Positions 3,446-60,074 of a stretch of DNA of 64,000 bases are shown piece after piece; position 1 is the first letter of the stretch, and each line of letters begins with the position of its first letter. Under the pieces are notes generated by a model. That model did no database searches, was not told the DNA's origin, and worked only from the letters and a program-made list of their open reading frames with translations. Location of the stretch: positions 64,001-128,000 of IMG/VR virus record IMGVR_UViG_3300033121_000493; one strand, written 5' to 3'. The position numbers and the translations under genes are program-made. Source of the DNA: a virus. Taxonomy: Duplodnaviria; Caudoviricetes.

Positions 3446-5740
3446 TTACACTCGGGCACCTAGATTCAGCTCAAGTCCATCCAGCGACGACCCAGAGCTA
3501 ATTCTACGTTGCTTCAAGAATAGGATCAGATCACCCAGCGCGCTAGATACGTTCTTTAGCTGATCTTCTAATTCTGGCAAGTTCTCATTACCATATCGCT
3601 CTTTGAACTTATCTCCGAACCAGTAGTAGATACACATGATACGGTTTACACGGTCAAGGCCAAGAATCAGATCGCCTAGATACTTACCAATTAAGTCATC
3701 GTTATCGATGGTCTTGATAAGCGAAGCGATGGCCGACGTATCGAAGACTTCTTTTTGACCAGTCTGTGCGGCCTGCATCATCTGTTCTTTTTCGGCTTTA
3801 CCTAGATACGCTTCTGGATTAGCGTCCATCTGAGGTGACTGCATAAGTGCGTTCATCTCATATTGTTCTGGTACGCCAGCATACGAATCAAACCCCATAC
3901 CAGGCTCTGGAATAGGAGGAGCGTAGTCAGCACTAAGTTTCATCAGATACTCAGCCGACTTACCAGGAGCAATATCTACAAGACTATCAGCATCTTTTGC
4001 CGAAGCTCCAGACTTCTTTATCGCAGCTAGAACAACGCGCTGCCGACTAAATGGACCTGTACCGTTAACAAAGTAGCTGTTACTATAGTCACGGCTTACC
4101 TTCACAACACTCATACCAGACTTCATTAGCCCCATCTCAAAAGAGATGAGTGAACCTGGGTCTATAGACGACCACGTATTAACGTTGTCTTTATTTGCAG
4201 ACTTAGCGAGCTTTATGACCTTAGCCGAATTAGGCACAAACAGCGTATTACCCACACATTTGATAGCTATATCTCGGTCTACAATAACTATCTGAGTCAC
4301 ATTCCAGTTACCAACAGTTGGATATGAGCTATCACTACTTTCTGGTAGCGGACTGGATACGTGCATACCGTTTATACCACGTGTCCCTGTGTACTTGGTG
4401 TAATCGCTGGCTGGGTTTCTGGCAAAAGCTTTGCTATTGTCAGACTCAACCCATCCACGTCCTTCGTGGTTTTGCTCAAACGTGCGTAATGGGTTGGCTA
4501 CACTAGGTTCAGCGGTCATGGGACAAACAATTACACGCGTAGTACCATCTTTATCCGTTAGCTTGTTTTCAACTTTGAACGCTACCGTAGCAGCCATTCT
4601 GTTAGTAGCGATCACGTAGTTGTTACCAGTTGTCATGGAAGTGACATCGTCAAGCTTGTCCATAGCTTCAAGATTTTCAGCTCTGTCACCTTCCATCGGC
4701 TTACACCACAATAGTGTAGGCCACTGATAGAAGAACTCGTTATCTTTGTCTAGGTTAACAACTAGTGCAGCTCTGGATACACCCTCGCCAATAGGATGCG
4801 GGGCTATAAACACCCACACATTGACAAATGTGTTCTTGTCCGTAAGCAGTTCATACTTACCACTGATAGTAGGATTTACCAGATTGTACGAACCACGTTT
4901 ATAAATACCGTTATGCTCAGAGCGGTTATCGCGTACGATTATTTCACCGCGCATCAGTGCTTCACGGTCTTTATCGAAGATGGCATCCGCCGCAGCTTCC
5001 TTACCAAAGATTACTTTTACAGTATTGGTAGATCTGTCAATGGCTCTAGCTGCTTTAAAGACATTGAAATCTTTTTCAGCTGCGGTATTTGGATTAAACT
5101 TCTTTGAGTTATCTAACGCACGCTTAGTAATGAGCTTATCTAGCGAGTAGTAATTGGTTACGGCGGCATTGAACCGCTCATCCTTTTTCATAGCGTCCAG
5201 CATCATTACTACTGTGCCGCAGTTGGCTGTCTTCTCTAAGAATTCAGGCAACTGTAGCGCGCTACCGTTTCGTGTCGTAAATACTTTTGGTAGTTCACCA
5301 AGATCACTGGCCGATCGAACGTTGAACAACTCCAACCCAGGACGTCCAGCTCTACCCGTAATACCTCTAATGTCTGGTGACATGACACCTAGCTGTTGTT
5401 CAGTTCTAGGTTCTTTCTCGCCAAGCTTAAACGGTCTACGATTAAGTAGAAACGAAATCCAATTATCCGCCAGCGGAAGGAAAAGATCCTGTTCTTTCAA
5501 ATACATGAAATTACATTTGAGCTCACCGTTCAAATAGAAGCACGGCACAAGTATCAGCTGCTCGCCAACTTTAAACCCAAATACACCAAGTGCGTGAGTT
5601 TGATCGTCGTTTGCGTCGACTATCTCAAACCCCAACATGTAATCCATTAATGACGGAGCTTTATCGCGCAACTGAGCGTGCGATAAATTTGCAAGTGTTA
5701 GTTCAAAATCACTATCTGGAGATTGTGCTATAGACGCCAC
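3446..5740 (-). CDS. Large hypothetical protein, probable virion structural protein
   Basis: 764 aa ORF with repeated K-x-A (EKTAN, TKRAL, GKEAA) in a putative structural block. Confidence 0.6.
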   Translation of the reverse strand: MASIAQSPDSDFELTLANLSHAQLRDKAPSLMDYMLGFEIVDANDDQTHALGVFGFKVGEQLILVPCFYLNGELKCNFMYLKEQDLFLPLADNWISFLLNRRPFKLGEKEPRTEQQLGVMSPDIRGITGRAGRPGLELFNVRSASDLGELPKVFTTRNGSALQLPEFLEKTANCGTVVMMLDAMKKDERFNAAVTNYYSLDKLITKRALDNSKKFNPNTAAEKDFNVFKAARAIDRSTNTVKVIFGKEAAADAIFDKDREALMRGEIIVRDNRSEHNGIYKRGSYNLVNPTISGKYELLTDKNTFVNVWVFIAPHPIGEGVSRAALVVNLDKDNEFFYQWPTLLWCKPMEGDRAENLEAMDKLDDVTSMTTGNNYVIATNRMAATVAFKVENKLTDKDGTTRVIVCPMTAEPSVANPLRTFEQNHEGRGWVESDNSKAFARNPASDYTKYTGTRGINGMHVSSPLPESSDSSYPTVGNWNVTQIVIVDRDIAIKCVGNTLFVPNSAKVIKLAKSANKDNVNTWSSIDPGSLISFEMGLMKSGMSVVKVSRDYSNSYFVNGTGPFSRQRVVLAAIKKSGASAKDADSLVDIAPGKSAEYLMKLSADYAPPIPEPGMGFDSYAGVPEQYEMNALMQSPQMDANPEAYLGKAEKEQMMQAAQTGQKEVFDTSAIASLIKTIDNDDLIGKYLGDLILGLDRVNRIMCIYYWFGDKFKERYGNENLPELEDQLKNVSSALGDLILFLKQRRISSGSSLDGLELNLGARV

Positions 5741-5753
5741 AGGTTATTACCCC

Positions 5754-5990
5754 TTACATTATTTTGGTAGTTGATTGGTTTAACCCTTTTGCCGGATTAG
5801 TCATAGGCTTTATAGGCATACTGATCGGCTTAGTACCAGCCGGTTTATTACCAAGTCCTATACCACCCATTCCAGTTAAACCACGCATACCAACACCTTG
5901 CGTTGATTGCATTGGACCTATGCTGGGTATACCAGTGGCTAACGCCTGCTTATACAATTCAACGCCTAGGTTATATGCAAAATCATTCAT
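5754..5990 (-). CDS. Small Gly/Pro-rich protein with K-x-A motif
   Basis: MNDFAYNLGVELYKQALA... Confidence 0.55.
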   Translation of the reverse strand: MNDFAYNLGVELYKQALATGIPSIGPMQSTQGVGMRGLTGMGGIGLGNKPAGTKPISMPIKPMTNPAKGLNQSTTKIM

Positions 5991-6029: not shown

Positions 6030-8834
6030 TTAATAGACACCTTTAGTTTCTAAATCTTTACCAAATGTAGTGCCTTCTGCCAGCGCGTGTCCAAAGTTAG
6101 GTCCGTGTATTTGTGAACTAGATCCACGTCGAGCAGCGTCCATAAATCCTTTGCCTACATAAAATCCTTGAAGGCGCTTGAACCAATCTTTGTCATATAT
6201 GGTTGATTCAAGTGCTCTTGTCATGTACGGTTCAAATGGTGGTGGTTCTGTATGCGCAGTTATAGAATTTACACTGTGCTTATTAAGTGTCTTGGCAACA
6301 CTAGGAGTTATACGCGTACCAATAGAGTAATGTAACACTGGCTGTTCTAAGAACTTACCTACAGACTTATCTGGCTTATCAGTAACACTACCGTGGCGCG
6401 GCTTCCATCGGCTAGCCAGGTCGTCATAGGAAATGATGTCGTCTGGTATTAGATTTTCTCCAGCGTCAAAGTCTGTCACTTTAACGTGGTTTAATAGACC
6501 GCGCGCCATAATCTCTATGTTACGACGGTTTACTTTTATACCACTGTTAGCCAACGTTTCTCTTAGTGTCTTCATAAAGTAACGTCGACCTTCGCCTACG
6601 TGCTTAAAGCGTACTACTTCAGCAGGATTAGCTATACCTGTAGATAAAGCGTCACCAGCCTCTACAGTATCACCGACCTTAACTTTTAATGTTGCCTCTG
6701 GTGGCACGTAATGCTTTTCACCGTCAACTAGTACATAGTTACCGCCCTGCGGCGCTGCCTCTACACTTTCCACTCTACCGTCTTGTGAAGCTAAAGTAGC
6801 AGCCCCAACGAAAGTACTTGGAACACTGACAAGCTGTTCTATAGCTCTAAACCCAGACAGCCCAGTCTCATGCGACGAACCTATAACGCCCGCGCCGTGC
6901 TTAGCGCTATTAGATACTATTAGACCATTGGCCAATACAAACAAATGGTCTTCATGATCTACTTCTATGTCCATCGTGTTAAGTTGGCCGACGTCATGTG
7001 CAAACCAAAATTTTAATGTGTAATCGGCGTGTTTCCCACTTTCATATACAACAACCCGCTGTTTATCTACATCGCCAACTGGCATTACAACGTGATCGTC
7101 TTCATTATTTGATACAAGGATTTTATGATCTTTGGTGGATACAACAGCAATCTCGTGGCCACTGTATTTAGCAAATACAGATTTAATACACGGACGAATC
7201 CCGTTGTTGTACTTGTTCAATACTCTAACTGGGAAAACGTTACCAAACTTGTTAGCTCCCAGCACTAACTCCTGTAACTCTATGTCTTTAAGTTTCTTTA
7301 CAGACCCGTCAGCCATGCGAACTTCAGTATTCTCATCCAAGCATAACTGAGACTGGCTAAGTGGCTCACTTATAGCCTGCGCGGCAGATATACCTACGTT
7401 ATCACCAATCGCACTACGACCTCTATCACGCATTCCTGCAGCTAGTCTAGGCACACCAATCCCACCAGCAGATATAGGAGAATGGATTAGTATCTCGTCG
7501 TTGTCTTTTCTCAACTCTTTAAGTATCGACGGTGTTATTGTCGTACCGGCTTTGAACTTGCCGTAATCTCTGGCTAGCGCAGCTCCAACACTATCGTCAT
7601 CGTCTGTGTCTACTGGCAAACCAGTTCCAGCGCCTGGCTCTTCATCAGTTACTATCAGTCTGGCATTGGCGTTGGCCAAAAGTTTGCCTAGATAACCGGC
7701 ATCGGCAGTCGAGTTTGAAACGATTAAACCGTTCTCCAACACGAATAGATGGTCCTCATTTGCCACTTCTATATCAAAAGTATCAACAGTGCCAACTGCT
7801 ATTTTTTCAATGGCACGCGATGTTTTACGGTACGCTTTTGTATCACGTGTATTATCAAGTAGCTGCGCGACGCAAGCAGAAAAATTGTTCTTGTGTGGGT
7901 TTGCCCAGAATTTTGCACGGCTTAACGGCTGGATACTAAAAGATCTATCCCAGTGTACTGTTTTATTTGCGCGAGTAATACTACAAAGGATTTTATGATC
8001 CTCTGTGCAGATAAGCTCTAGTGTGTTATTTTCGTGTTCTAGCTTGAGCTTTCGTCCGTTTCTGAATTTAAACTTGTAGCACTCACGCGGCCCATTCGCG
8101 AATACTTTAGTAACCAGTGTTGGAAAAGTTTGACCGGCTTTATTTGCCCCTAGCACCCAGTCACCAGGTTGTATGGCTTCAATTGGCTTTACTGTAAAGT
8201 CCGCCATGCGTACTTTGGTACCTACTGAAACGCATCGCTTGGTGGATATGATGCCCTTTCGTGTTCCATAGCTCGTTGCAAAGTATTCAGCAGGAGATAG
8301 CCCCTCTGAATAGTTACTTAAAATAGGAATAGGTATAGGCTTATCGTTATGGTCGGCAACTAACAAATCAGCCGCTCTTAGAGTACTAAGGTTAGCCGCA
8401 CTACCTCTAGCGCCAGATTTGATCGCCATAGCAAAGTTATTGCCTTCGTCGAGACTTTCTTTGTATGTAGCGTCGCGTAAAGGATCTATCTTACTCATCA
8501 GAAAACTGATTAGCTGTTGATTCCTGGTTTTCTCATCTAGCCGCTTGTCAGCAAACAACTTAGATACATGCTCTTTTATTTGCTGAATAATTGGTTCTTT
8601 AGCTTTTGCAGTTTCTAGGTCTTTCAGCGACAGCGATGTACCAGATGAAAACGCTACATCAGCGCCTACCTTAGAAAGATTATGTACTATCTCTTTATAT
8701 TTGTCCGGATAACGCTGCTGCACTTCTCGTAGTACATTCATCATGGTCTTTTTGTCCATGACTCTATCGTAGTCCCGCATGTCTTCGGGAAGTGCTTCAT
8801 TAACCATTAATTTGCCAAGAGTAGTTGTTAACAT
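6030..8834 (-). CDS. rpoC: DNA-directed RNA polymerase beta' subunit, C-terminal part, with two inteins
   Basis: TTLGKLMVNEALP, KSGARGS, SNYSEGLSPAEYF..GTRKG, TADAGYL (bridge helix), AAQAISEP..KH (trigger loop), VGDTVEAGDALSTG. Confidence 0.92.
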   Translation of the reverse strand: MLTTTLGKLMVNEALPEDMRDYDRVMDKKTMMNVLREVQQRYPDKYKEIVHNLSKVGADVAFSSGTSLSLKDLETAKAKEPIIQQIKEHVSKLFADKRLDEKTRNQQLISFLMSKIDPLRDATYKESLDEGNNFAMAIKSGARGSAANLSTLRAADLLVADHNDKPIPIPILSNYSEGLSPAEYFATSYGTRKGIISTKRCVSVGTKVRMADFTVKPIEAIQPGDWVLGANKAGQTFPTLVTKVFANGPRECYKFKFRNGRKLKLEHENNTLELICTEDHKILCSITRANKTVHWDRSFSIQPLSRAKFWANPHKNNFSACVAQLLDNTRDTKAYRKTSRAIEKIAVGTVDTFDIEVANEDHLFVLENGLIVSNSTADAGYLGKLLANANARLIVTDEEPGAGTGLPVDTDDDDSVGAALARDYGKFKAGTTITPSILKELRKDNDEILIHSPISAGGIGVPRLAAGMRDRGRSAIGDNVGISAAQAISEPLSQSQLCLDENTEVRMADGSVKKLKDIELQELVLGANKFGNVFPVRVLNKYNNGIRPCIKSVFAKYSGHEIAVVSTKDHKILVSNNEDDHVVMPVGDVDKQRVVVYESGKHADYTLKFWFAHDVGQLNTMDIEVDHEDHLFVLANGLIVSNSAKHGAGVIGSSHETGLSGFRAIEQLVSVPSTFVGAATLASQDGRVESVEAAPQGGNYVLVDGEKHYVPPEATLKVKVGDTVEAGDALSTGIANPAEVVRFKHVGEGRRYFMKTLRETLANSGIKVNRRNIEIMARGLLNHVKVTDFDAGENLIPDDIISYDDLASRWKPRHGSVTDKPDKSVGKFLEQPVLHYSIGTRITPSVAKTLNKHSVNSITAHTEPPPFEPYMTRALESTIYDKDWFKRLQGFYVGKGFMDAARRGSSSQIHGPNFGHALAEGTTFGKDLETKGVY
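6909..7343 (-). mobile_element. Mini-intein 2 (145 aa, residues 498-642) in the RNAP trigger loop
   Basis: CLDENTEVRMADG...STKDHKIL...DIEVDHEDHLFVLANGLIVSN, +1 Ser; removal restores AAQAISEPLSQSQLSAKHGAG. Confidence 0.9.
7713..8234 (-). mobile_element. Mini-intein 1 (174 aa, residues 201-374) in the RNAP bridge helix
   Basis: Starts C (CVSVGTKVRMAD), block B CTEDHKIL, ends DIEV..DHLFVLENGLIVSN, +1 Ser; removal restores GTRKGIISTKRSTADAGYL. Confidence 0.9.
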
Positions 8835-11977: not shown

Positions 11978-12020
11978 TAAAAAAAAGACCCCACACAACA
12001 AATAGTTGTGTAGGGTCTTG
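11978..12020 (-). terminator. Intrinsic terminator
   Basis: Hairpin AAGACCC..ACAAC/GTTGT..GGGTCTT followed by a T-run on the minus strand, downstream of 12129-12656. Confidence 0.7.
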
Positions 12021-12128
12021 GTGTATCGTATAAAAACACGCAGCGAGTCACAATCCAATAGTCCGGTAGACTAAAGAACCATAACCCGCTGGTAGCTCAA
12101 AGCGCCGATACTGAGTTTAGCTCAGTAT

Positions 12129-12656
12129 TTAGTCGCGAGCGCGACGCTGCTTCTCGTCCATGTCCACGGTACGCTGGAATCGAATCGCGTACACGCCAGG
12201 AGGCAACACGAACGCGCCGTGCTCGGGGTGATTCAGCGTGCGCTTCTTCTCCAGCGCCAGAATCGCCCCATCGTACTCGTTGGCCTCGGCCAGGGTGTAC
12301 ATGGTCACACCTTCTCCCGAGTCCAGGATGTGTCGCGAGCCGGGAGTGTTACCCGGAGCGAGCTGCAGATTGACGGTATCCATCTTGCGGATACCGACCT
12401 TTCCTTCCTTGCTGTCGCGGATGACGTGCTTCTTGCCTTCCATCTGAGCACGCAGGATCATCACATCACCCTGGCGAACGAAATCGCCAACGCTGGCAGC
12501 CTCGGGAAAGTTCTGCGGCTTACGGCGATCGATGACCTCGCCGGGGCGCACGGGAACCTTGCAGCTGGCCACTTCCTTGCCGCGATTGATCACGGTCTCG
12601 ACAGCACGAGCGGCGGCAACAGCGGCGGGAGTCTTCAGAGTAGCAGTGGTCGACAT
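12129..12656 (-). CDS. Conserved hypothetical protein (RQGDV...H...HPEHG..LPPGVY family), GC-rich
   Basis: Motifs typical of the family that I recall occurring next to DUF6745 genes; start reassigned to ATG at 12656. Confidence 0.65.
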   Translation of the reverse strand: MSTTATLKTPAAVAAARAVETVINRGKEVASCKVPVRPGEVIDRRKPQNFPEAASVGDFVRQGDVMILRAQMEGKKHVIRDSKEGKVGIRKMDTVNLQLAPGNTPGSRHILDSGEGVTMYTLAEANEYDGAILALEKKRTLNHPEHGAFVLPPGVYAIRFQRTVDMDEKQRRARD

Positions 12657-12836
12657 TTGTCTTTTTCCTTGTCTTGGTTTCGGATTCAGAAACAGGTCAC
12701 AGCGATACAATCGTTATATACAGCTTAGTAAAAGTCTACGGCCTACAGGCACAATACCCAAACAAAGTTTGTATTTTTATTATCTATATGCTCATACTAA
12801 CGCGTACTTTTAGATTATCAACTGTAGATCACTAAA

Positions 12837-14099
12837 TTACGAAGTTGCGAGGCACTTGCCCTGGGACGTAGCGCCGCCAGGCAAATTGGCCATCCAGGTC
12901 TGGGCGTCCACGCACTTGACGACTTCACGCCCAACACGAATGGGGTAAGTACGTCCAGTTGACGAGCAAGCGCAGATCATTACGGTACCGTCGCGGTCGC
13001 CGCAATCAAACAGCACTTCATGCGTTTTGTCAATCGGGTTCTCGCGCTCGTCGATGATCTTGGCTTCCACCAGCTGAACGTAGTTTGGCCAGCCGTACTG
13101 CTGGATCATGATACGGCGAACTTCTTCGTCGCTGGCGTCATTGAAGTCTTTGATCGTCAGCGTCTCTGGGCGCATAACGATCTGTTCGGTGACCGGATTG
13201 CCTTCGATGCAGTAGATCTTCCAGCCATCACGGAATGCCAGCGCAGGACCAGTTGTGTTGTGCAATTGGCCTTCAGCTGTAATGTGGATCTCGCTGGGGC
13301 GCTCACAGAGAATGATGAAATGCGTGTTCAGCCACGCATACCCGCCAAACTCAGACGCCTCTTCGAAATCGCGTGCGATCGGCGCGATTTCCATACCGAG
13401 GATGTCGCGGCAAAACGATGTGTACGCGGGCCAGGCATCCCACAACGGAATACCCTGACAAACGTGCCAGTTCTGCTTCTGCAGCGCTGTGACGGTAGCC
13501 GACACATCTTCTTTGTCGTTCTTGGTGGTTGTCGAGCCCTTTTTCAGGTCGCTCGGTACCAGCGGCGCGATCGCCTTGAACGAGAGCTCGACAATCGCCT
13601 TGATGGATTTGTCGATGAGATCTGTGCTGAGATCGATGTCGTTCTTGTGCATGCGGTCAGCGAGCAGCTTGGTGTACCACTCCTCGCCTCGCCGCCAGAC
13701 AGCCGTCACTGCGTCTTCAGAGTTAATCAGAGCTTTTGTGAACGCCGCCGCCAGAGTACCGACGACAGGCGACTGCACATGAATGATTGCGTGTTCGGGC
13801 CACGGGAGCTCAACTTCCCAGAACGTATTACGATACGCCGTTGCGGTGCGCTCGAAGTCGACGGGTTCGGTCGACAGTGAGATGTCCTGCCAACGCTTCT
13901 CGTGCGCGTCGCGTAGTTTGTTTTGCTCGGGGGTCAGTGACTCGACGGACGGGGCGCTCACCGGCGAGTATGTAGAACTTTTTCGGCGCGGCTGGCCAGT
14001 CACAGGGTCGAGGGGGTGGTAGGCGGCTACCGCCGGTGCTGGCGTTTCAACGGTGGTTTTCTTGGACGCGGGCTTGGCTTTTTTGATTTGTTTGGCCAC
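12837..14099 (-). CDS. DUF6745-like domain protein, GC-rich
   Basis: CERP...GQLHNTTGPALAFRDGWKIY..EG, EEVRRIMI..YG; GTG start at 14099 with AAGGAG RBS. Confidence 0.7.
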   Translation of the reverse strand: MAKQIKKAKPASKKTTVETPAPAVAAYHPLDPVTGQPRRKSSTYSPVSAPSVESLTPEQNKLRDAHEKRWQDISLSTEPVDFERTATAYRNTFWEVELPWPEHAIIHVQSPVVGTLAAAFTKALINSEDAVTAVWRRGEEWYTKLLADRMHKNDIDLSTDLIDKSIKAIVELSFKAIAPLVPSDLKKGSTTTKNDKEDVSATVTALQKQNWHVCQGIPLWDAWPAYTSFCRDILGMEIAPIARDFEEASEFGGYAWLNTHFIILCERPSEIHITAEGQLHNTTGPALAFRDGWKIYCIEGNPVTEQIVMRPETLTIKDFNDASDEEVRRIMIQQYGWPNYVQLVEAKIIDERENPIDKTHEVLFDCGDRDGTVMICACSSTGRTYPIRVGREVVKCVDAQTWMANLPGGATSQGKCLATS

Positions 14100-14216
14100 A
14101 GAGTGCTCCTTGAGCTGATGATTGGTTTCCAGGGAAGACAGAACAAGACACGACACTATAGACATAGTGTATAAAGATATGCCTAGACAAATGTGTAGCG
14201 CGCTACAGCCTAGTTA

Positions 14217-28325: not shown

Positions 28326-31300
28326 TTAGCCCTGTAGTATTTTAATTCTGGTGTCTGCGTTTATTTCTCCACGTCTGAACGCCGCTATAGCGTCCGCTTT
28401 GGTAGCAAATGTTTTTGCTTCATGTGCGCTTTGATCGTGAGTAGCCCTAAATAGCCCGTGCAAAAATTCCTGGATAGGTGCATAGTGCACGTCAAAATTT
28501 CTAGCACTGAGTAAATTAGCGCTAGGCATAAGCTTACGCTTAGCTTCACTGACAGCTTCATCACTGACAGGCACGTGGAACTGCATTCTGTCACCGTCGA
28601 AATCAGCGCCGTAGCCACTGACGATTGTAGGGCTTAGCTGCATGGTTTGCGTTTTAGCCAACACAGGCCACGCAGCCATTATTCCGAACTTGTGTAGCGT
28701 AGGAGCTCGGTTGATGAGTACCGGACGCACTTTCATTTCTTCAATCAAAGCGTCCTTAGCAATTCTATCTTTGTTGGCAACCATATTAACAGCCTGTACG
28801 GCAGGAGTACCCCGTCTGACCAACGACCTAATGATAAATGGTCGGTATAGAGTCCATGCTTTCTCTTCTGGCAAACCTACTTGATCCATGTCTAGCGACG
28901 GGTTTGGCGTAATAACAGCGCTACCGACCATGTCAGTTGTGCTGCCTATGATCTTACGCTGAAACACTGAAAACTTTGGCGACGACCGCAGTCCTAGCGC
29001 ATGCGACAAAATGCCTTTTATGTTCTTCTCTTGTAACTTTGGCTGCAGCGGATCTGACAATCCGACCAGTGCCTTGAACGAGCTGTACAACGCTAAACGC
29101 TCGTCACCTGCGGCTTCGTGGCCTAACGTATCTGTTACGTCCTTTACGTTGTTGTTAGCACGTATGATCTCTTTGTACAAGTAGTTAGGGTCACTAACTA
29201 TTGTCATACCTTTAGGCCCAGTTGCGATAGGCCGATACTGAGGCGGCATAATAGGTACTTTAGTCAGCATCAGCTCTTCTGGCTTAATGCCTGTTTTCTT
29301 TAGCATTGTAAAAACGCGCAACCGCTTAATAGCGTCGTCGCGGTTTGTTTTTGATCCATTAGTGACTAGATCTTTTAGTCGATCAATCTCGCTGTGTACG
29401 TTGAGAGACTGTAGCGCGCTACGCAATGCTTCCGGCCCTGTCTTTTCTTTAAGCATGCGTTTACCGGCTATAACATCTTCCAACTGACCTTCAGTAAGCC
29501 CCAGCACTTTACGGATAGAATCTTCGAAAACAGGATTTGGTAATGGGTGATTAAGATTAACGTGCGTAAACCCTGTCCCTTCAGGACCACCAGTTAAACC
29601 TATATCAAACAACCCACCACTTATCGGCTTCATCGTATCGAAATCAAGAGTATCGTCGCTCTTGACTTCGCCTCTAGACATCTTGTCTATGTCTTTATCA
29701 GTCAAAGCCATGATGTTTACGAAGTTACCGGTCTTGCTAACATTGATGCCAGCAGACCTTAAATCGTCCATAAACTTCTTGTACACGAATGGTGCTTCTG
29801 GTGTTGGCGGCGGATACCCCAAACGAAACGCACGCCAGAAATCGTCATTTCGCTGCCCGCGTATGAGCTTAGCATCACGCAGTACTTCAGTAGCACCAGC
29901 AGACAATAATGACATTGTCTCTAGCCCACCTATACGCTTGGCAGAGCCTTCACCACCTTTAGCAGGAACTTTGTCAATAGTGTATGAACCGTCGTCTGCA
30001 CGAGCGTCGGCTTTGTCTTCTGCAGTATGGTGTAGTTTCATCCAGTACTGCACGCCAGACAACACATTATTCACATTAGCGTTTCTATTTGGATCAAATA
30101 GAGTTTCAGTATCCTTTATGCCGTATTTCTTTAGCTCGTCCTGTACAGTCTTTAGATTACTTCCATCTTGGAAAGACGGTACAACATATTTTTTACCTAA
30201 CTTAGCTGCTACCTTACCAAGCGCGAGCTCAAGTATGGCCGCAGGGTTAGATCGAGAGATAGTACCAAACGGATGGATTAGCAACTCTAGCGGATTTTTA
30301 TCACTATCGTGCGGCATTTGATCATCAGGTACTATTGATGAAATAACACCTTTACCGCCGAAGCGCATCGTTAGCTTATCACCAACCACACATGGTCGGT
30401 ACGCTTTTACGATAACGTTTACATCTTTTGGTCCGGCATGTACATCTGTAACTATTCCGTCGTCATCGTATTCCCACACGTGCGACGAATCCATAAATCT
30501 AGCTTTGCTACTGCGCGTTAATACGCCTTGACCCTTAGCAGATTTTTCAGAAATACTAAGAATCAGGGGATCACCCTTCTTCACAACAGTTCCTGGTTTG
30601 ATTAAACCGTTGTCTGTAAAGTTCGCTAGCTGAGCTTTATTGTACGTTGTAGGAAACGCGCTGATAAATGCATTCCTACTAACTTTCTGCCCAGGCTCAA
30701 TGTCCATTGAATGCTGGTACATATGCTCAGACGCCATTTTCTTAGCGGCGCTCTCGCTAACAACAATGGCATCTTCTACGGTAAGACCTTTGAACGGTAA
30801 GTAAGCAGTGCGTAAATTTTTGCCTAACGCCAACTCACCTTCGTCATTTGTGAAATTTGTTTTAGCCAGTAACTGGCCAGGTTTGACATAGTCACCTGGC
30901 TTTACCATAGGTGTATTGTTTACAAACCCACGTCGATTATACGGAAAATTATCGTACAGTTCGTAGCGTTTAATGCCGTTGGGAGTTTTGATACTGATGC
31001 TATCTTTATCCAACTTAGTAACTATTCCAGTTGCATCAGATCTGACTATGCCAGTTTTGCTGCCTAAGAATCTTTCAAAAGAATCATTAGGCTCACCAGA
31101 TGGCCTGCTTGTCTGAACAAACGGTGCTTCGCCGTCTTTGATCGCTAGAGCTTGCGTTGCCATTCTGGCTACCATGTTAGTTCTGTGGCCCTTGATGGAC
31201 GACAGAAACGGCACAAGGTGCGCCAACGTAGACATCATGTGCTCTGGATGCGGGAGCTCGTAGTCAACTTTGCTTGGATCTACGTACTTAATGCGACCGC

Positions 31301-32717
31301 GTACTAATGCTTGTGCCGGTCTATTCTCAGCTATAGCTTTTTTCAACTCACCTGGAAAAGCAATAACGGATCTAGTCGCATCCGTAGATGGTACAAAGAT
31401 CTTTTTGCCGGTCTTATCCAAAAACTGTGAGTACAGTTTACCGTCACTACCACGGTGAACGTTGTACGCAGTTCTATTGTCTACACCGGCTTTCTCAGAT
31501 TCTGCTGTACGAACTACGTCGATGAAACCCATATACGAAGGCTGCACGGCACGTGACTCGTCAGGAATAGCGTCTGTATCTGGAATACCACCATAGCCAA
31601 GTCGAGACACACGCTGCAACTGATCATAGATGTCTAGAGGATTTGATTCCTCCAGCGGCATACCAAGACCGGAACTAAGCAGAACAGATTCCAATTGTTT
31701 GTTACGTTGCTGGTGATTAAGTATAGGATTAAGTGACCTGGCGTATGTAGCTTTCCACAGAGCTCGTCTAGCCACACCACCAACGTCAGCTTTAATACGC
31801 TCAGCCAGCATCTCTGCCGGACCAATCACCTTCTGATACGAGATGTTGTCACGGTCATCTGTATCCATTTCACCTTTACGAATCTTCAGCAACTTATGTG
31901 TAGCGGCCAGTATTGCCTGCGGGCTAACCGTATCGAAGCGTGTACCAAGAGTTTCCTCTGTAATATTGGGGTCTAGCTTCATAGCAGCCATAGCTTTAGC
32001 TATAGCCGTAGGCTTGCTTTTCTCGTCGTCTAGCTTGTCACCAAATTCTTTTCTAATAGCATAATCAGTAAACTTCTCGTACGCTTTAGCGATAGCCGGT
32101 TTATTAGCTTGCGTAGCGTTTGCCGCTAATAGATCTCTACCCCATATAGCTGATAACTCTTTATCTGACACGCCAAGCCCACGTAATAGTGGGTATAACG
32201 CAAACTTAGACTGACCTACTTTAACGTCAAACACACCTGTCTCTGGTTCCATAAACACACGAAAGGACGGACCAGACCCAGGCATAATGTTGAAGTGCGA
32301 TTCTAGTTCGCCGTTTTCTTTTTTGCGCGTATACACACCAGGTAACAGTCGTGCCTGGTGCGACAGCGTGTATTCATTACCACGGTAAATAAACGTACCG
32401 CGCTGTGTCATCTGCGGTATATCAGCAATCTTTGCACGCCGCTGTTCTACTACAGAATTGTCGGCTACGTTACTTAGCCGCCACGTACCATGTAACGGTC
32501 GCGTTAATGACTTACCTGTTAATATAGCCTTACGCTGTGCGGTAATAGGCGATACTTCTGTAGGATCGTCATATCCGACATCGGCTAACTCTAGTTTATA
32601 TTGGCTGTTGGTTATTGGATACGCGCTAGCGTACGCATTTTTGACGTTGTCATAAATGCTACTGCGCAGATAATCCACATCATCAAAAGCATGAATAGAC
32701 GGCTTACTGATATCCAC
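28326..32717 (-). CDS. rpoBC: DNA-directed RNA polymerase, fused beta + beta'-N subunit
   Basis: beta motifs GTFIYRG, GELALGKN, EDAIV, GDKLTMRFGGKG, SRSN, KLHH, KRIGGLE; beta' motifs VLINRAPTLH and catalytic GADFDGD; start reassigned to GTG 32717 (GGAG RBS), since the 32804 extension overlaps a terminator. Confidence 0.93.
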   Translation of the reverse strand: MDISKPSIHAFDDVDYLRSSIYDNVKNAYASAYPITNSQYKLELADVGYDDPTEVSPITAQRKAILTGKSLTRPLHGTWRLSNVADNSVVEQRRAKIADIPQMTQRGTFIYRGNEYTLSHQARLLPGVYTRKKENGELESHFNIMPGSGPSFRVFMEPETGVFDVKVGQSKFALYPLLRGLGVSDKELSAIWGRDLLAANATQANKPAIAKAYEKFTDYAIRKEFGDKLDDEKSKPTAIAKAMAAMKLDPNITEETLGTRFDTVSPQAILAATHKLLKIRKGEMDTDDRDNISYQKVIGPAEMLAERIKADVGGVARRALWKATYARSLNPILNHQQRNKQLESVLLSSGLGMPLEESNPLDIYDQLQRVSRLGYGGIPDTDAIPDESRAVQPSYMGFIDVVRTAESEKAGVDNRTAYNVHRGSDGKLYSQFLDKTGKKIFVPSTDATRSVIAFPGELKKAIAENRPAQALVRGRIKYVDPSKVDYELPHPEHMMSTLAHLVPFLSSIKGHRTNMVARMATQALAIKDGEAPFVQTSRPSGEPNDSFERFLGSKTGIVRSDATGIVTKLDKDSISIKTPNGIKRYELYDNFPYNRRGFVNNTPMVKPGDYVKPGQLLAKTNFTNDEGELALGKNLRTAYLPFKGLTVEDAIVVSESAAKKMASEHMYQHSMDIEPGQKVSRNAFISAFPTTYNKAQLANFTDNGLIKPGTVVKKGDPLILSISEKSAKGQGVLTRSSKARFMDSSHVWEYDDDGIVTDVHAGPKDVNVIVKAYRPCVVGDKLTMRFGGKGVISSIVPDDQMPHDSDKNPLELLIHPFGTISRSNPAAILELALGKVAAKLGKKYVVPSFQDGSNLKTVQDELKKYGIKDTETLFDPNRNANVNNVLSGVQYWMKLHHTAEDKADARADDGSYTIDKVPAKGGEGSAKRIGGLETMSLLSAGATEVLRDAKLIRGQRNDDFWRAFRLGYPPPTPEAPFVYKKFMDDLRSAGINVSKTGNFVNIMALTDKDIDKMSRGEVKSDDTLDFDTMKPISGGLFDIGLTGGPEGTGFTHVNLNHPLPNPVFEDSIRKVLGLTEGQLEDVIAGKRMLKEKTGPEALRSALQSLNVHSEIDRLKDLVTNGSKTNRDDAIKRLRVFTMLKKTGIKPEELMLTKVPIMPPQYRPIATGPKGMTIVSDPNYLYKEIIRANNNVKDVTDTLGHEAAGDERLALYSSFKALVGLSDPLQPKLQEKNIKGILSHALGLRSSPKFSVFQRKIIGSTTDMVGSAVITPNPSLDMDQVGLPEEKAWTLYRPFIIRSLVRRGTPAVQAVNMVANKDRIAKDALIEEMKVRPVLINRAPTLHKFGIMAAWPVLAKTQTMQLSPTIVSGYGADFDGDRMQFHVPVSDEAVSEAKRKLMPSANLLSARNFDVHYAPIQEFLHGLFRATHDQSAHEAKTFATKADAIAAFRRGEINADTRIKILQG

Positions 32718-32757
32718 AATAGTATCTCCGTAGCTATACAGAAATAGAAGTATACAA

Positions 32758-32796
32758 TAAAAAACCGCCGCCAGCAATATGCCAATCGGCGGTTTG
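32758..32796 (-). terminator. Intrinsic terminator upstream of the RNAP gene
   Basis: AAACCGCCG...CGGCGGTTT inverted repeat followed by a T-run on the minus strand. Confidence 0.55.
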
Positions 32797-32830
32797 GCGA
32801 CCAAACGCCAGTAAGCCCGAGTAATTTAGA

Positions 32831-57933: not shown

Positions 57934-58041
57934 GCTCAACACAGACAACAAAGTCAAGTTTGGCTGGTGAATAAACTTGAATAGTTCAAGCTATTACACA
58001 GTCAAACTTAAAAAGACGTGCTCGCGCCGTGGGTCGACCAA

Positions 58042-58077
58042 TTAGTTGGCTTCGTCAAAGAAATTGAAAGTTTTCAT
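58042..58077 (-). CDS. Candidate minigene MKTFNFFDEAN
   Basis: AAGGAGGT RBS 5 nt before the ATG. Confidence 0.4.
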   Translation of the reverse strand: MKTFNFFDEAN

Positions 58078-58160
58078 GGCTAACCTCCTTTCTACTTGAA
58101 AAAGGTGACAAAGCGACAGGTGGCACGCTTCAAGCGGTTCGTACCAAATGAACAAAGTAG

Positions 58161-58187
58161 CTACGCGTAACCGTCAAACATAGACAT
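58161..58187 (-). CDS. Candidate minigene (MS)MFDGYA
   Basis: AGGAGGTGA RBS, well spaced for the second ATG. Confidence 0.35.
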   Translation of the reverse strand: MSMFDGYA

Positions 58188-58643
58188 TCACCTCCTATTC
58201 TTACGCTGCGGCGAAATACCGCCTACAGCTTGCTGCGTTTGCTTACAGGCTGCTTATGCCTGTAGCGCGCTACCGACAGGCCGGCAACAATACCGACAAA
58301 TCCGCCAGCAACACACCCAAAAAATGCAAACAAAGCCCACCAGCCGATGCTGACCGCTACAGGTAGTGTCATCACCGGCCCTTCGCGGCGGCTGCGATGA
58401 TGCCGAACAAGACCAGCAGAAAAATAAGCAGCGTGGACAGAAAACACGCGTCTGGCCACTCAAGAAGTGCCAACATGATTTGCTCTCGCATATGAGACGT
58501 GTTTGACGCCGAACTCAAACCCAAGAGCTAGCAATTTGGCAGCGCAAAAAGCCAACTCTTGGGTTTTACAATCTGCAATAACTACGCGCCCGAAAAAGGT
58601 AACCGACGTGTCGACTACCTCGAACGGCGCTACGTTACTACAG

Positions 58644-59684
58644 TTATTTGTTGCCGTCAACGCGGTCACGCAGCTCCGACACTTCATCGCCGAAGATGGT
58701 GTCGGTGCCGATATCGCTCGAAGTGCGCAGCTGGCCAGCGATCTGCGCGGCAACGTCATCGCCGATGATGGGGCGGTGCTCGCCAGCACTGCGGCTGCTG
58801 GCAACTTCGGTCCGATCTTGATTGTCATTCCGCCTGTTGTGACGATTGCTGCGGTTCGCAGGGTTGGTGTCGGCCCGCAACGTGTAGTCAAGCGAGCCGA
58901 TGGCCAGCTTCGCGGAAAGCTGATCGTCAGGGCGAATGTAGACCGGAGTGTTGACCTTGACATAGATGTTGCTGACGTCGTACACGCCGGAAGACCACCG
59001 AACCGGATACAGCGGGCTGCCGATGTGATCGACAACGTGTTGCGTGATCACGTGCTGCAGAAGCTTCTCGCTGTCTTCGGGATACTGCTGCAGAAGCTTG
59101 GCGAATGCCGCTTGTGACAACCGCGTCGCGCACGCATCGCTGAATGGCTTGCTGAGAACGCCGACAGGAATGGTTCCTTGCGTTTGCCCGGTGACAATTT
59201 GCCAGGCATCCCAGCGCACCACTTCCATGTTGAGCGGCTCAGACGCGGCCGCGCTGAAGTAGATCGGCAGATCACCAAACGGAGTTTCGATCGGCTGGAT
59301 CTCAGAGTCTTTGCCGAGAAGCAACATCGCCGAATCGTAATTGTTGTACGCGTGGCGCGCACGCGTACGATCGGTGATTTGATTGCTCCGCGCCGCCTCG
59401 TAATCCTGCACGATGAACTTGTAATCCCACCACTTGTTCCCGCGCAGCGCGAAAACGCCAGACGTGCCGACATCGAAGCGCAGGTAGCAGAACCGGTTCA
59501 CGGTGATGCTGTTGCCACGGACGCGGTCGCTCCCGGTGCTCTGTCGAGCGGACGGGGTAACGACGTCGATGAACATGGAAAACAGCTTCGAATCAGTGAG
59601 TCGGGCGATCCCGTTCACGGCACGCGCCGACAGCGCCACGAAACCAACGCGATTGATGAATTTGTCCGGAGCAACTGACGTCAT
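58644..59684 (-). CDS. Hypothetical protein, GC-rich coding sequence
   Basis: 346 aa, AGGAG RBS, C/G-ending codons. Confidence 0.7.
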   Translation of the reverse strand: MTSVAPDKFINRVGFVALSARAVNGIARLTDSKLFSMFIDVVTPSARQSTGSDRVRGNSITVNRFCYLRFDVGTSGVFALRGNKWWDYKFIVQDYEAARSNQITDRTRARHAYNNYDSAMLLLGKDSEIQPIETPFGDLPIYFSAAASEPLNMEVVRWDAWQIVTGQTQGTIPVGVLSKPFSDACATRLSQAAFAKLLQQYPEDSEKLLQHVITQHVVDHIGSPLYPVRWSSGVYDVSNIYVKVNTPVYIRPDDQLSAKLAIGSLDYTLRADTNPANRSNRHNRRNDNQDRTEVASSRSAGEHRPIIGDDVAAQIAGQLRTSSDIGTDTIFGDEVSELRDRVDGNK

Positions 59685-59693
59685 GACAATCTC

Positions 59694-60074
59694 CTAGTGG
59701 CTATTAGCCACAATTACTGTTCCGTCGGCGGCGGTCAGCTTCACTTGCACTGTGCGAGTGATTTTAGGCTGTAGCCGTTGGCCTTGGAACATCAGCAAAC
59801 AGTCTGCGGAAATAATTGAAGTGTACTCTAAATAAGTACTAGCCATAGCGTCTACGTCATCAAATTCTAATACCTGTATATCGTTGTGGTTAACTACTAC
59901 TAAGTAGCCATGAAACAACGGTAATACAGAACTTGAGCTGGATTCTTGCGGCAATGCGTCGCCCAAACCAGATGAAGCTAATTGCTCATCCGGTTTGGGC
60001 GAACCGTCGGACTCCACCATTTTACTTCCTTGGAGGCTTGGCAGGCATGGAGAATGTTCGTTTATTAGAATCAC
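59694..60074 (-). CDS. Hypothetical protein
   Basis: 126 aa; probable true start at MVESDG. Confidence 0.5.
   Translation of the reverse strand: MILINEHSPCLPSLQGSKMVESDGSPKPDEQLASSGLGDALPQESSSSSVLPLFHGYLVVVNHNDIQVLEFDDVDAMASTYLEYTSIISADCLLMFQGQRLQPKITRTVQVKLTAADGTVIVANSH

Follow-up and report, generated by a model that had tools for sequence, protein, structure and literature searches.

In the 64,000-nucleotide stretch of phage DNA analysed here (the window; bases 64001-128000 of the 202,582-bp virus record IMGVR_UViG_3300033121_000493), a gene for the C-terminal part of the RNA polymerase beta-prime subunit is interrupted by two inserts that very likely are independently acquired, splicing-competent class-1 mini-inteins, members of a LAGLIDADG-intein family nearly confined to this gene. 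The record, rated complete by CheckV, represents an uncultured phage of about 203 kb. The gene lies at 6030..8834 on the minus strand, as do all of its parts described below, and its open reading frame (ORF) encodes a precursor of 934 amino acids (aa) that would yield a mature protein of about 615 aa. Intein 1 (aa 201-374, 174 aa; 7713..8234) sits in the bridge helix and intein 2 (aa 498-642, 145 aa; 6909..7343) in the trigger loop. What is new here is quantitative evidence that the two are not a sibling pair, the origin of intein 1 by endonuclease deletion, and evidence for the radiation of a gene-restricted intein family, including its endonuclease, over at least 11 sites. A search of open-access papers and bioRxiv turned up no description of inteins in the multisubunit RNA polymerase of a phage.

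Both inserts carry the residues of a class-1 intein. With slashes marking the splice junctions, intein 1 reads ...GIISTKR/CVSVGTKVRMAD...NGLIVSN/STADAGYLGK and intein 2 reads ...EPLSQSQL/CLDENTEVRMAD...NGLIVSN/SAKHGAGVIG. In intein numbering, intein 1 has Cys1, Thr77..His80, Asp154, His162, Ser173-Asn174 and a +1 Ser, and intein 2 has Cys1, Thr70..His73, Asp125, His133, Ser144-Asn145 and a +1 Ser. The block B Thr-x-x-His is TEDH in the former and TKDH in the latter, and from block F to the end both follow DIEV..EDHLFVL.NGLIVSN/S, which contains the Asp, the His, the terminal Asn and the +1 Ser. The penultimate residue, usually though not by definition His, is Ser in both inteins. Excision of both inserts gives an unbroken alignment with twelve intein-free homologues of 608-633 aa, in which the window protein aligns as three abutting pieces and the rejoined ends fall at adjacent profile positions, 199 and 200 for intein 1 and 323 and 324 for intein 2. 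In the gene product, Pfam detects RNA_pol_Rpb1_5 (4e-14), Hom_end_hint (1e-10) and Hint (5e-7), all exceeding their cut-offs, and it finds no nuclease domain (LAGLIDADG, HNH or other) between blocks B and F of either intein. The Pfam family Intein_splicing (PF14890) is blind to both inteins in this genome, which Hom_end_hint and Hint detect; profiles of the intein ends matched nothing else in the whole 202,582-bp genome.

Structure prediction agrees with these assignments. The AlphaFold2 model of intein 2 is an all-beta HINT domain with a predicted local distance difference test score (pLDDT) of 95.7, and that of intein 1 also has the HINT fold (pLDDT 89.8), with lower confidence at the scar of the endonuclease deletion described below. 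The best Foldseek matches of the inteins are the solved Npu DnaE, Mtu RecA, Npu DnaB and Prp8 inteins, with template modelling (TM) scores up to about 0.8; for intein 2 the first three of these rank highest, at a TM score of about 0.8. A sequence search of solved structures gave intein 2 a marginal match only, to Npu DnaE (E=0.06), and intein 1 none. Because the conserved catalytic positions are all kept and the HINT fold is predicted, both inteins are expected to be splicing competent. A sequence-only reading of this DNA had described the two elements as inteins that lack an endonuclease and have an initial Cys, a Ser-Asn end and a +1 Ser; the sequence, Pfam and the models all bear this out, and the span that it gave, 6909-8234, coincides exactly with the outer limits of the two inteins.

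To place the insertion sites, we aligned a profile of the twelve intein-free homologues to solved bacterial beta-prime chains, among which it matches 8k60_D over residues 660-1167 (E=5e-57). The N-extein (aa 1-200; 8235..8834) ends with ...YGTRKGIISTKR, the first half of the bridge helix; the middle extein (aa 375-497; 7344..7712) runs from the second half of that helix (STADAGYLGKLL...) to the first trigger-loop helix (...AAQAISEPLSQSQL); and the C-extein (aa 643-934 plus the stop codon; 6030..6908) begins SAKHGAGVIG, whose His corresponds in the alignment to the catalytic His of the trigger loop, E. coli H936. In the profile, ...RKGvvsvklatakaGflgkql is aligned to the beta-prime bridge helix and seplsqsqlsakh to GEPGTQLTMRTFH. 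Intein 1 is thereby placed in the bridge helix, between E. coli L788 and K789, and intein 2 in the first trigger-loop helix, within GEPGTQLTM/RTFH, between M932 and R933. These sites are the ones that the sequence-only reading had named. For the trigger loop we take M932, R933 and H936 to be the correct E. coli numbering; the bridge-helix numbering agrees with a published account (PMC3077646). Given the functions of the bridge helix and of those residues in the trigger loop that align to M932, R933 and H936, the precursor is very probably inactive until both inteins have spliced, as it would have neither a bridge helix nor a trigger loop able to fold.

The two inteins belong to a large family. 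We collected 120 homologues of 608-1633 aa from a search of 5.8 billion proteins with the gene, and 118 further beta-prime-C proteins from among the best 150 of 776 intein-profile matches in 1.84 billion representatives; these best 150 were all beta-prime-C proteins except for one 179-aa fragment. Profiles built from the N-terminal 55 and C-terminal 32 residues of the inteins located 356 inteins in the 238 homologues, up to four per gene. Eleven sites hold at least four inteins each (profile positions 184, 194, 195, 198, 199, 207, 314, 318, 323, 324 and 327), and insertion is concentrated at the bridge helix (positions 184-207) and around the trigger loop (314-334), which form two hot zones. 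Of the 356 inteins, 350 have an initial Cys, 322 (90%) have a Ser-Asn end and 338 have Ser as the next residue; conservation is 99% for Cys1, 96% and 100% for the block B Thr and His, 100% and 95% for the block F Asp and His, 91% for the penultimate Ser, 100% for the terminal Asn and 95% for the +1 Ser. The family consensus includes CLAEGTLVRMADGS..., VLGADKNGNTFPVRV, ATEDHKVL and TYDIEVDHPDHLFVLANGLIVSN. Half of the family retains a homing endonuclease, and mini and LAGLIDADG forms are both present at every main site. All 177 endonuclease domains tested are mutually homologous, the median domain matching 174 of the 176 others, and therefore whole inteins, rather than splicing domains alone, share ancestry across sites.

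Within the family, an intein and its nearest neighbour share their site in 76% of cases when endonucleases are compared and in 63% when splicing blocks are, and mismatches mostly join adjoining sites (323/327, 195/199 and 314/323). Site labels are clustered on the intein tree, with 114 changes compared with 221 when shuffled, yet supported clades mix sites. In homologue P0127, which has three mini-inteins of 137, 137 and 140 aa at sites 207, 314 and 323, the splicing blocks of the inteins at 314 and 323 show 71% identity (59% in a full-length BLASTP comparison), and a 9-residue extein separates the two; this pair looks like a genuine recent spread to a neighbouring site. On these sequence comparisons, one intein family does seem to have spread within a single phage gene, to 11 sites or more. 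The idea of intragenic spread, put forward by the sequence-only reading for the two window inteins, thus holds for the family as a whole, but not for that pair.

The second polymerase gene of the phage, which encodes beta fused to the N-terminal part of beta-prime (28326..32804, minus strand; 1492 aa), has no intein, and Pfam finds Rpb2_6, Rpb1_1 and Rpb1_2 only. Among 120 homologues of this fusion, 40 (P0248, P0251, P0255, P0256, P0271, P0299 and others) are 150-950 aa longer and have LAGLIDADG_3 or Intein_splicing domains. The beta-prime-C intein family was not found in these 40 insert-bearing proteins; the two polymerase genes therefore host different intein lineages.

The origin of intein 1 can be traced to its own site. 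The closest extein found (67% identity) is that of homologue P0003, whose site-199 intein shares 70% identity with intein 1 across the splicing blocks, has the same termini (C...SN/S) and is its sister in both trees (Shimodaira-Hasegawa-like approximate likelihood ratio test support of 99 and 98). The P0003 intein is 390 aa long and has two LAGLIDADG motifs, located in the segment missing from intein 1, and its host gene has no trigger-loop intein. Residues 1-123 of intein 1 are 65% identical to the P0003 intein and residues 125-174 are 68% identical to its residues 341-390, with 216 residues absent in between, so that intein 1 is an endonuclease-deleted derivative of a same-site homing intein, having lost these 216 residues after descent from an endonuclease-bearing ancestor. 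Intein 2 lacks a close relative, the best reaching 57% identity, and its grouping with inteins from sites 314 and 323 is moderately supported. When profiles were trained separately on bridge-helix-zone and trigger-loop-zone inteins (78% and 95% correct in cross-validation), intein 2 scored 7.0 bits toward the trigger-loop zone, for which the mean is 8.2 bits. By sequence, intein 2 is thus assigned to the trigger-loop-zone lineages.

These origins bear directly on the proposal that one intein of this gene was recently copied into the second site, which would make the two true siblings. The inteins do share a family and termini, match each other by BLASTP with E=3e-24 (34% identity over the full length), and real sibling pairs occur elsewhere, as in P0127; 7 of 152 same-protein pairs lie within each other's top five. 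Moreover, an approximately unbiased (AU) test on 77 rows does not reject the window inteins as sisters (delta log likelihood 1.67, p=0.47). Set against this is the finding that their identity over the splicing blocks (128 columns), 45.3%, is close to the median of 44.9% for 62,683 between-protein pairs, and they rank about 190th of 354 in each other's lists by identity and 226th-255th by rare-residue score. Only 3 of the 53 residues that they share are rare (present in less than 25% of the family), their rare-residue sharing score lies at the 37th percentile of random pairs, and the motifs that had been listed as signs of kinship are all family consensus. Intein 2 is at least as close to the P0003 intein (0.48) as to intein 1 (0.45), and intein 1 has its 70%-identical same-site relative in another phage. 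Identical residues are mostly encoded differently: in the N-terminal block 12 of 26 have the same codon, and in the C-terminal block only 7 of 21 do. Codon identity this low rules out gene conversion or duplication of the DNA in the recent past. The G+C contents of the inteins (0.43 and 0.40; 0.38 and 0.38 at third codon positions) are close to those of the extein (0.45 and 0.36), and so give no sign of recent foreign origin. We therefore regard a recent intragenic duplication as very unlikely. The phylogeny, which the sequence-only reading had proposed as a check, places intein 1 with a same-site intein and intein 2 with trigger-loop-zone inteins, essentially the outcome that the same reading had named as refuting it, with the AU result as a caveat; the view of the two as special siblings within this gene copy is not supported. 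In sum, the pair would seem to be neither recent copies nor special siblings, as no positive evidence favours such a relationship and several lines oppose it, short of a formal rejection.

A further question is whether the inteins serve the phage. Conditional splicing is known for some other inteins, and the pair could have been kept as a switch or timer that responds to redox state, temperature or packaging. Both sites are in indispensable mobile catalytic elements, so that splicing would gate activity, and the two inteins persist with no endonuclease of their own. Cysteine is absent from the 616 residues of the mature subunit (the 1492-aa beta/beta-prime-N fusion has two, and the two inteins 5 and 2), leaving the Cys1 thiols as thiol chemistry of the precursor; in addition, the polymerase is abundant in virions of the distant relative Salmonella phage Arash (PMC10585845), so that timing could matter. 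Nonetheless, the proposal that the sequence-only reading had made of a post-translational switch on phage transcription finds no support, and conditional splicing appears very unlikely. The twelve intein-free alleles, a class for which that reading had suggested a search, have 50-61% extein identity, the same range as the closest intein-bearing relatives, and the 25 nearest relatives vary in intein content, including intein-free alleles and every pattern of site occupancy, which indicates that no intein is required. The endonuclease in half of the family explains the distribution without a host benefit, and endonuclease-bearing relatives of the kind that had likewise been suggested for a search do exist, the 390-aa P0003 intein among them. 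Insertion in catalytic motifs is general for inteins (PMC1635734, PMC4760082). No regulatory residue pair is conserved, and the Ser-Asn end, the norm in 90% of the family, is shared with Npu DnaE, a very fast splicer. Cys52, the one other cysteine with partial conservation, was considered as a redox partner of Cys1 and rejected: the position is Cys in only 66% of the family and otherwise Val, Leu or Ile, an alternation that points to a buried hydrophobic position rather than a redox partner. The more specific idea that the inteins are exploited as an obligatory maturation step, in which the intracellular state would time or condition a probably virion-delivered polymerase through Cys1 thiols that are the sole cysteine chemistry of an otherwise cysteine-free subunit, we consider very unlikely. 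Least probable of all is that the inserts are domesticated HINT domains that no longer splice and are retained in the mature enzyme, like SI3 in the E. coli trigger loop. Some bacteria do tolerate large insertions in the trigger loop, but both inteins retain every splicing residue, and these residues are conserved throughout the family; the bridge helix and the first trigger helix would be broken by inserts placed midway along the former and between the M932- and R933-aligned residues of the latter; and close relatives exist without the inserts.

Besides the AU result, several points weigh against independent acquisition of two splicing-competent inteins. Splicing competence is read from sequence and fold, and no splicing has been observed. 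The intein phylogeny is a quick tree of 128 columns in which few inner branches are supported and intein 2 is on a long branch, and intein 1 scores only a weak 2.2 bits toward the bridge-helix zone. On the AU result, both inteins may share an old common origin within this gene lineage. The homologue sample is skewed to intein-bearing proteins, since both queries contained inteins, and with 150 of the 776 profile matches inspected, members of the family may reside in other genes.

Under our preferred reading, independent acquisition of two selfish inteins, the family has spread by homing and has repeatedly moved to new nearby sites preceding a Ser in the two hot zones. The bridge-helix intein derives from a same-site endonuclease-bearing ancestor, followed by loss of the endonuclease. 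After translation, each intein would excise itself in the standard four steps: an N-S acyl shift at Cys1, transesterification through attack by the +1 Ser, cyclisation of the terminal Asn and finally an O-N shift. Splicing would rejoin ...STKR-STADAG... and ...SQSQL-SAKHG... to give the subunit of about 615 aa, while the unspliced precursor, unable to form the bridge helix or fold the trigger loop, would be inactive. Splicing is most likely constitutive, with the inteins selfish passengers rather than regulators. Selfish homing and later endonuclease loss explain the data.

Several known systems resemble parts of this picture. Inteins occur in archaeal RNA polymerase (Methanocaldococcus jannaschii rPol A' and A'') and, as non-allelic inteins, in RPB2, RPA2 and RPC2 of eukaryotes and large DNA viruses (PMC1635734), likewise in conserved catalytic regions and at several sites per gene family. 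Those at different sites are not closely related, however, whereas one family occupies all sites in the phage gene, and their hosts are subunits of cells or of nucleocytoplasmic large DNA viruses rather than a phage beta-prime fragment. Published surveys accordingly treat inteins at different points of one protein as separate, independently acquired groups (PMC4760082, PMC1635734). The nearest precedent found, a transfer from site b to site d of Anaeramoeba Prp8 (PMC10710043), similarly placed related inteins at different sites of one protein, breaking the 'allelic rule', but it is a single putative event in a eukaryote, whereas the phage gene has hundreds of inteins of one family at 11 or more sites. 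The Npu and Ssp DnaE and Mtu RecA mini-inteins (PDB 4kl5, 2keq, 3ifj), from which the best structural matches come, are weakly similar in sequence at blocks B, F and G, and Npu DnaE has the same penultimate Ser as the window inteins, its chain ending in ...NGFIASN; these mini-inteins differ in having 18-25% identity and other host genes, and DnaE is naturally split. The host phage itself belongs to a lineage that resembles Salmonella phage Arash and probably corresponds to the metagenomic 'mReC' phages. The Arash RNA polymerase (gp206 and gp216; PMC10585845) and that of the mReC phages (PMC7481178) likewise have beta fused to the N-terminal part of beta-prime and a separate C-terminal part, and neither paper mentions inteins. 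Among 50,697 phage records, megablast found no match to the gene; the whole protein likewise had none in a peptide-pattern scan of IMG/VR, and tblastn gave only distant matches of at most 29% identity; Arash was the best among cultured phages, at 25%.

Taken alone, the two window inteins are ordinary selfish elements in conserved catalytic motifs. Unusual is that a single intein lineage, LAGLIDADG endonuclease as well as splicing domain, is found almost exclusively in one phage gene, which provides a large natural data set on how inteins and their endonucleases are retargeted to new sites and on how often the endonuclease is lost. The family also contains many compact mini-inteins with Cys1, a +1 Ser and a Ser-Asn end, which are possible tools for protein engineering. 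For annotation, phage beta-prime genes of this lineage that are 750-1600 codons long should be read as a protein of about 615 aa plus inteins.

The beta-prime-C homologues P0071, P0072, P0028, P0050, P0010, P0108 and P0083 are still 1045-1151 aa long after intein removal and have a C-terminal extension of 430-530 aa, in which no intein of the beta-prime-C family was found. In the window, a 764-aa gene without a Pfam match (3446..5740, minus strand) lies 289 bases downstream of the polymerase gene; a fusion to this gene was considered as the source of the extensions and rejected, BLASTP giving no match. Between the two genes there is a possible 78-codon ORF (5754..5990, minus strand). Elsewhere in the window, two 2-kb stretches (12001..14000 and 58001..60000) have a G+C content of 54-55%, compared with about 44% in the remainder, and the first of them contains a 442-aa DUF6745 protein (12837..14165, minus strand).

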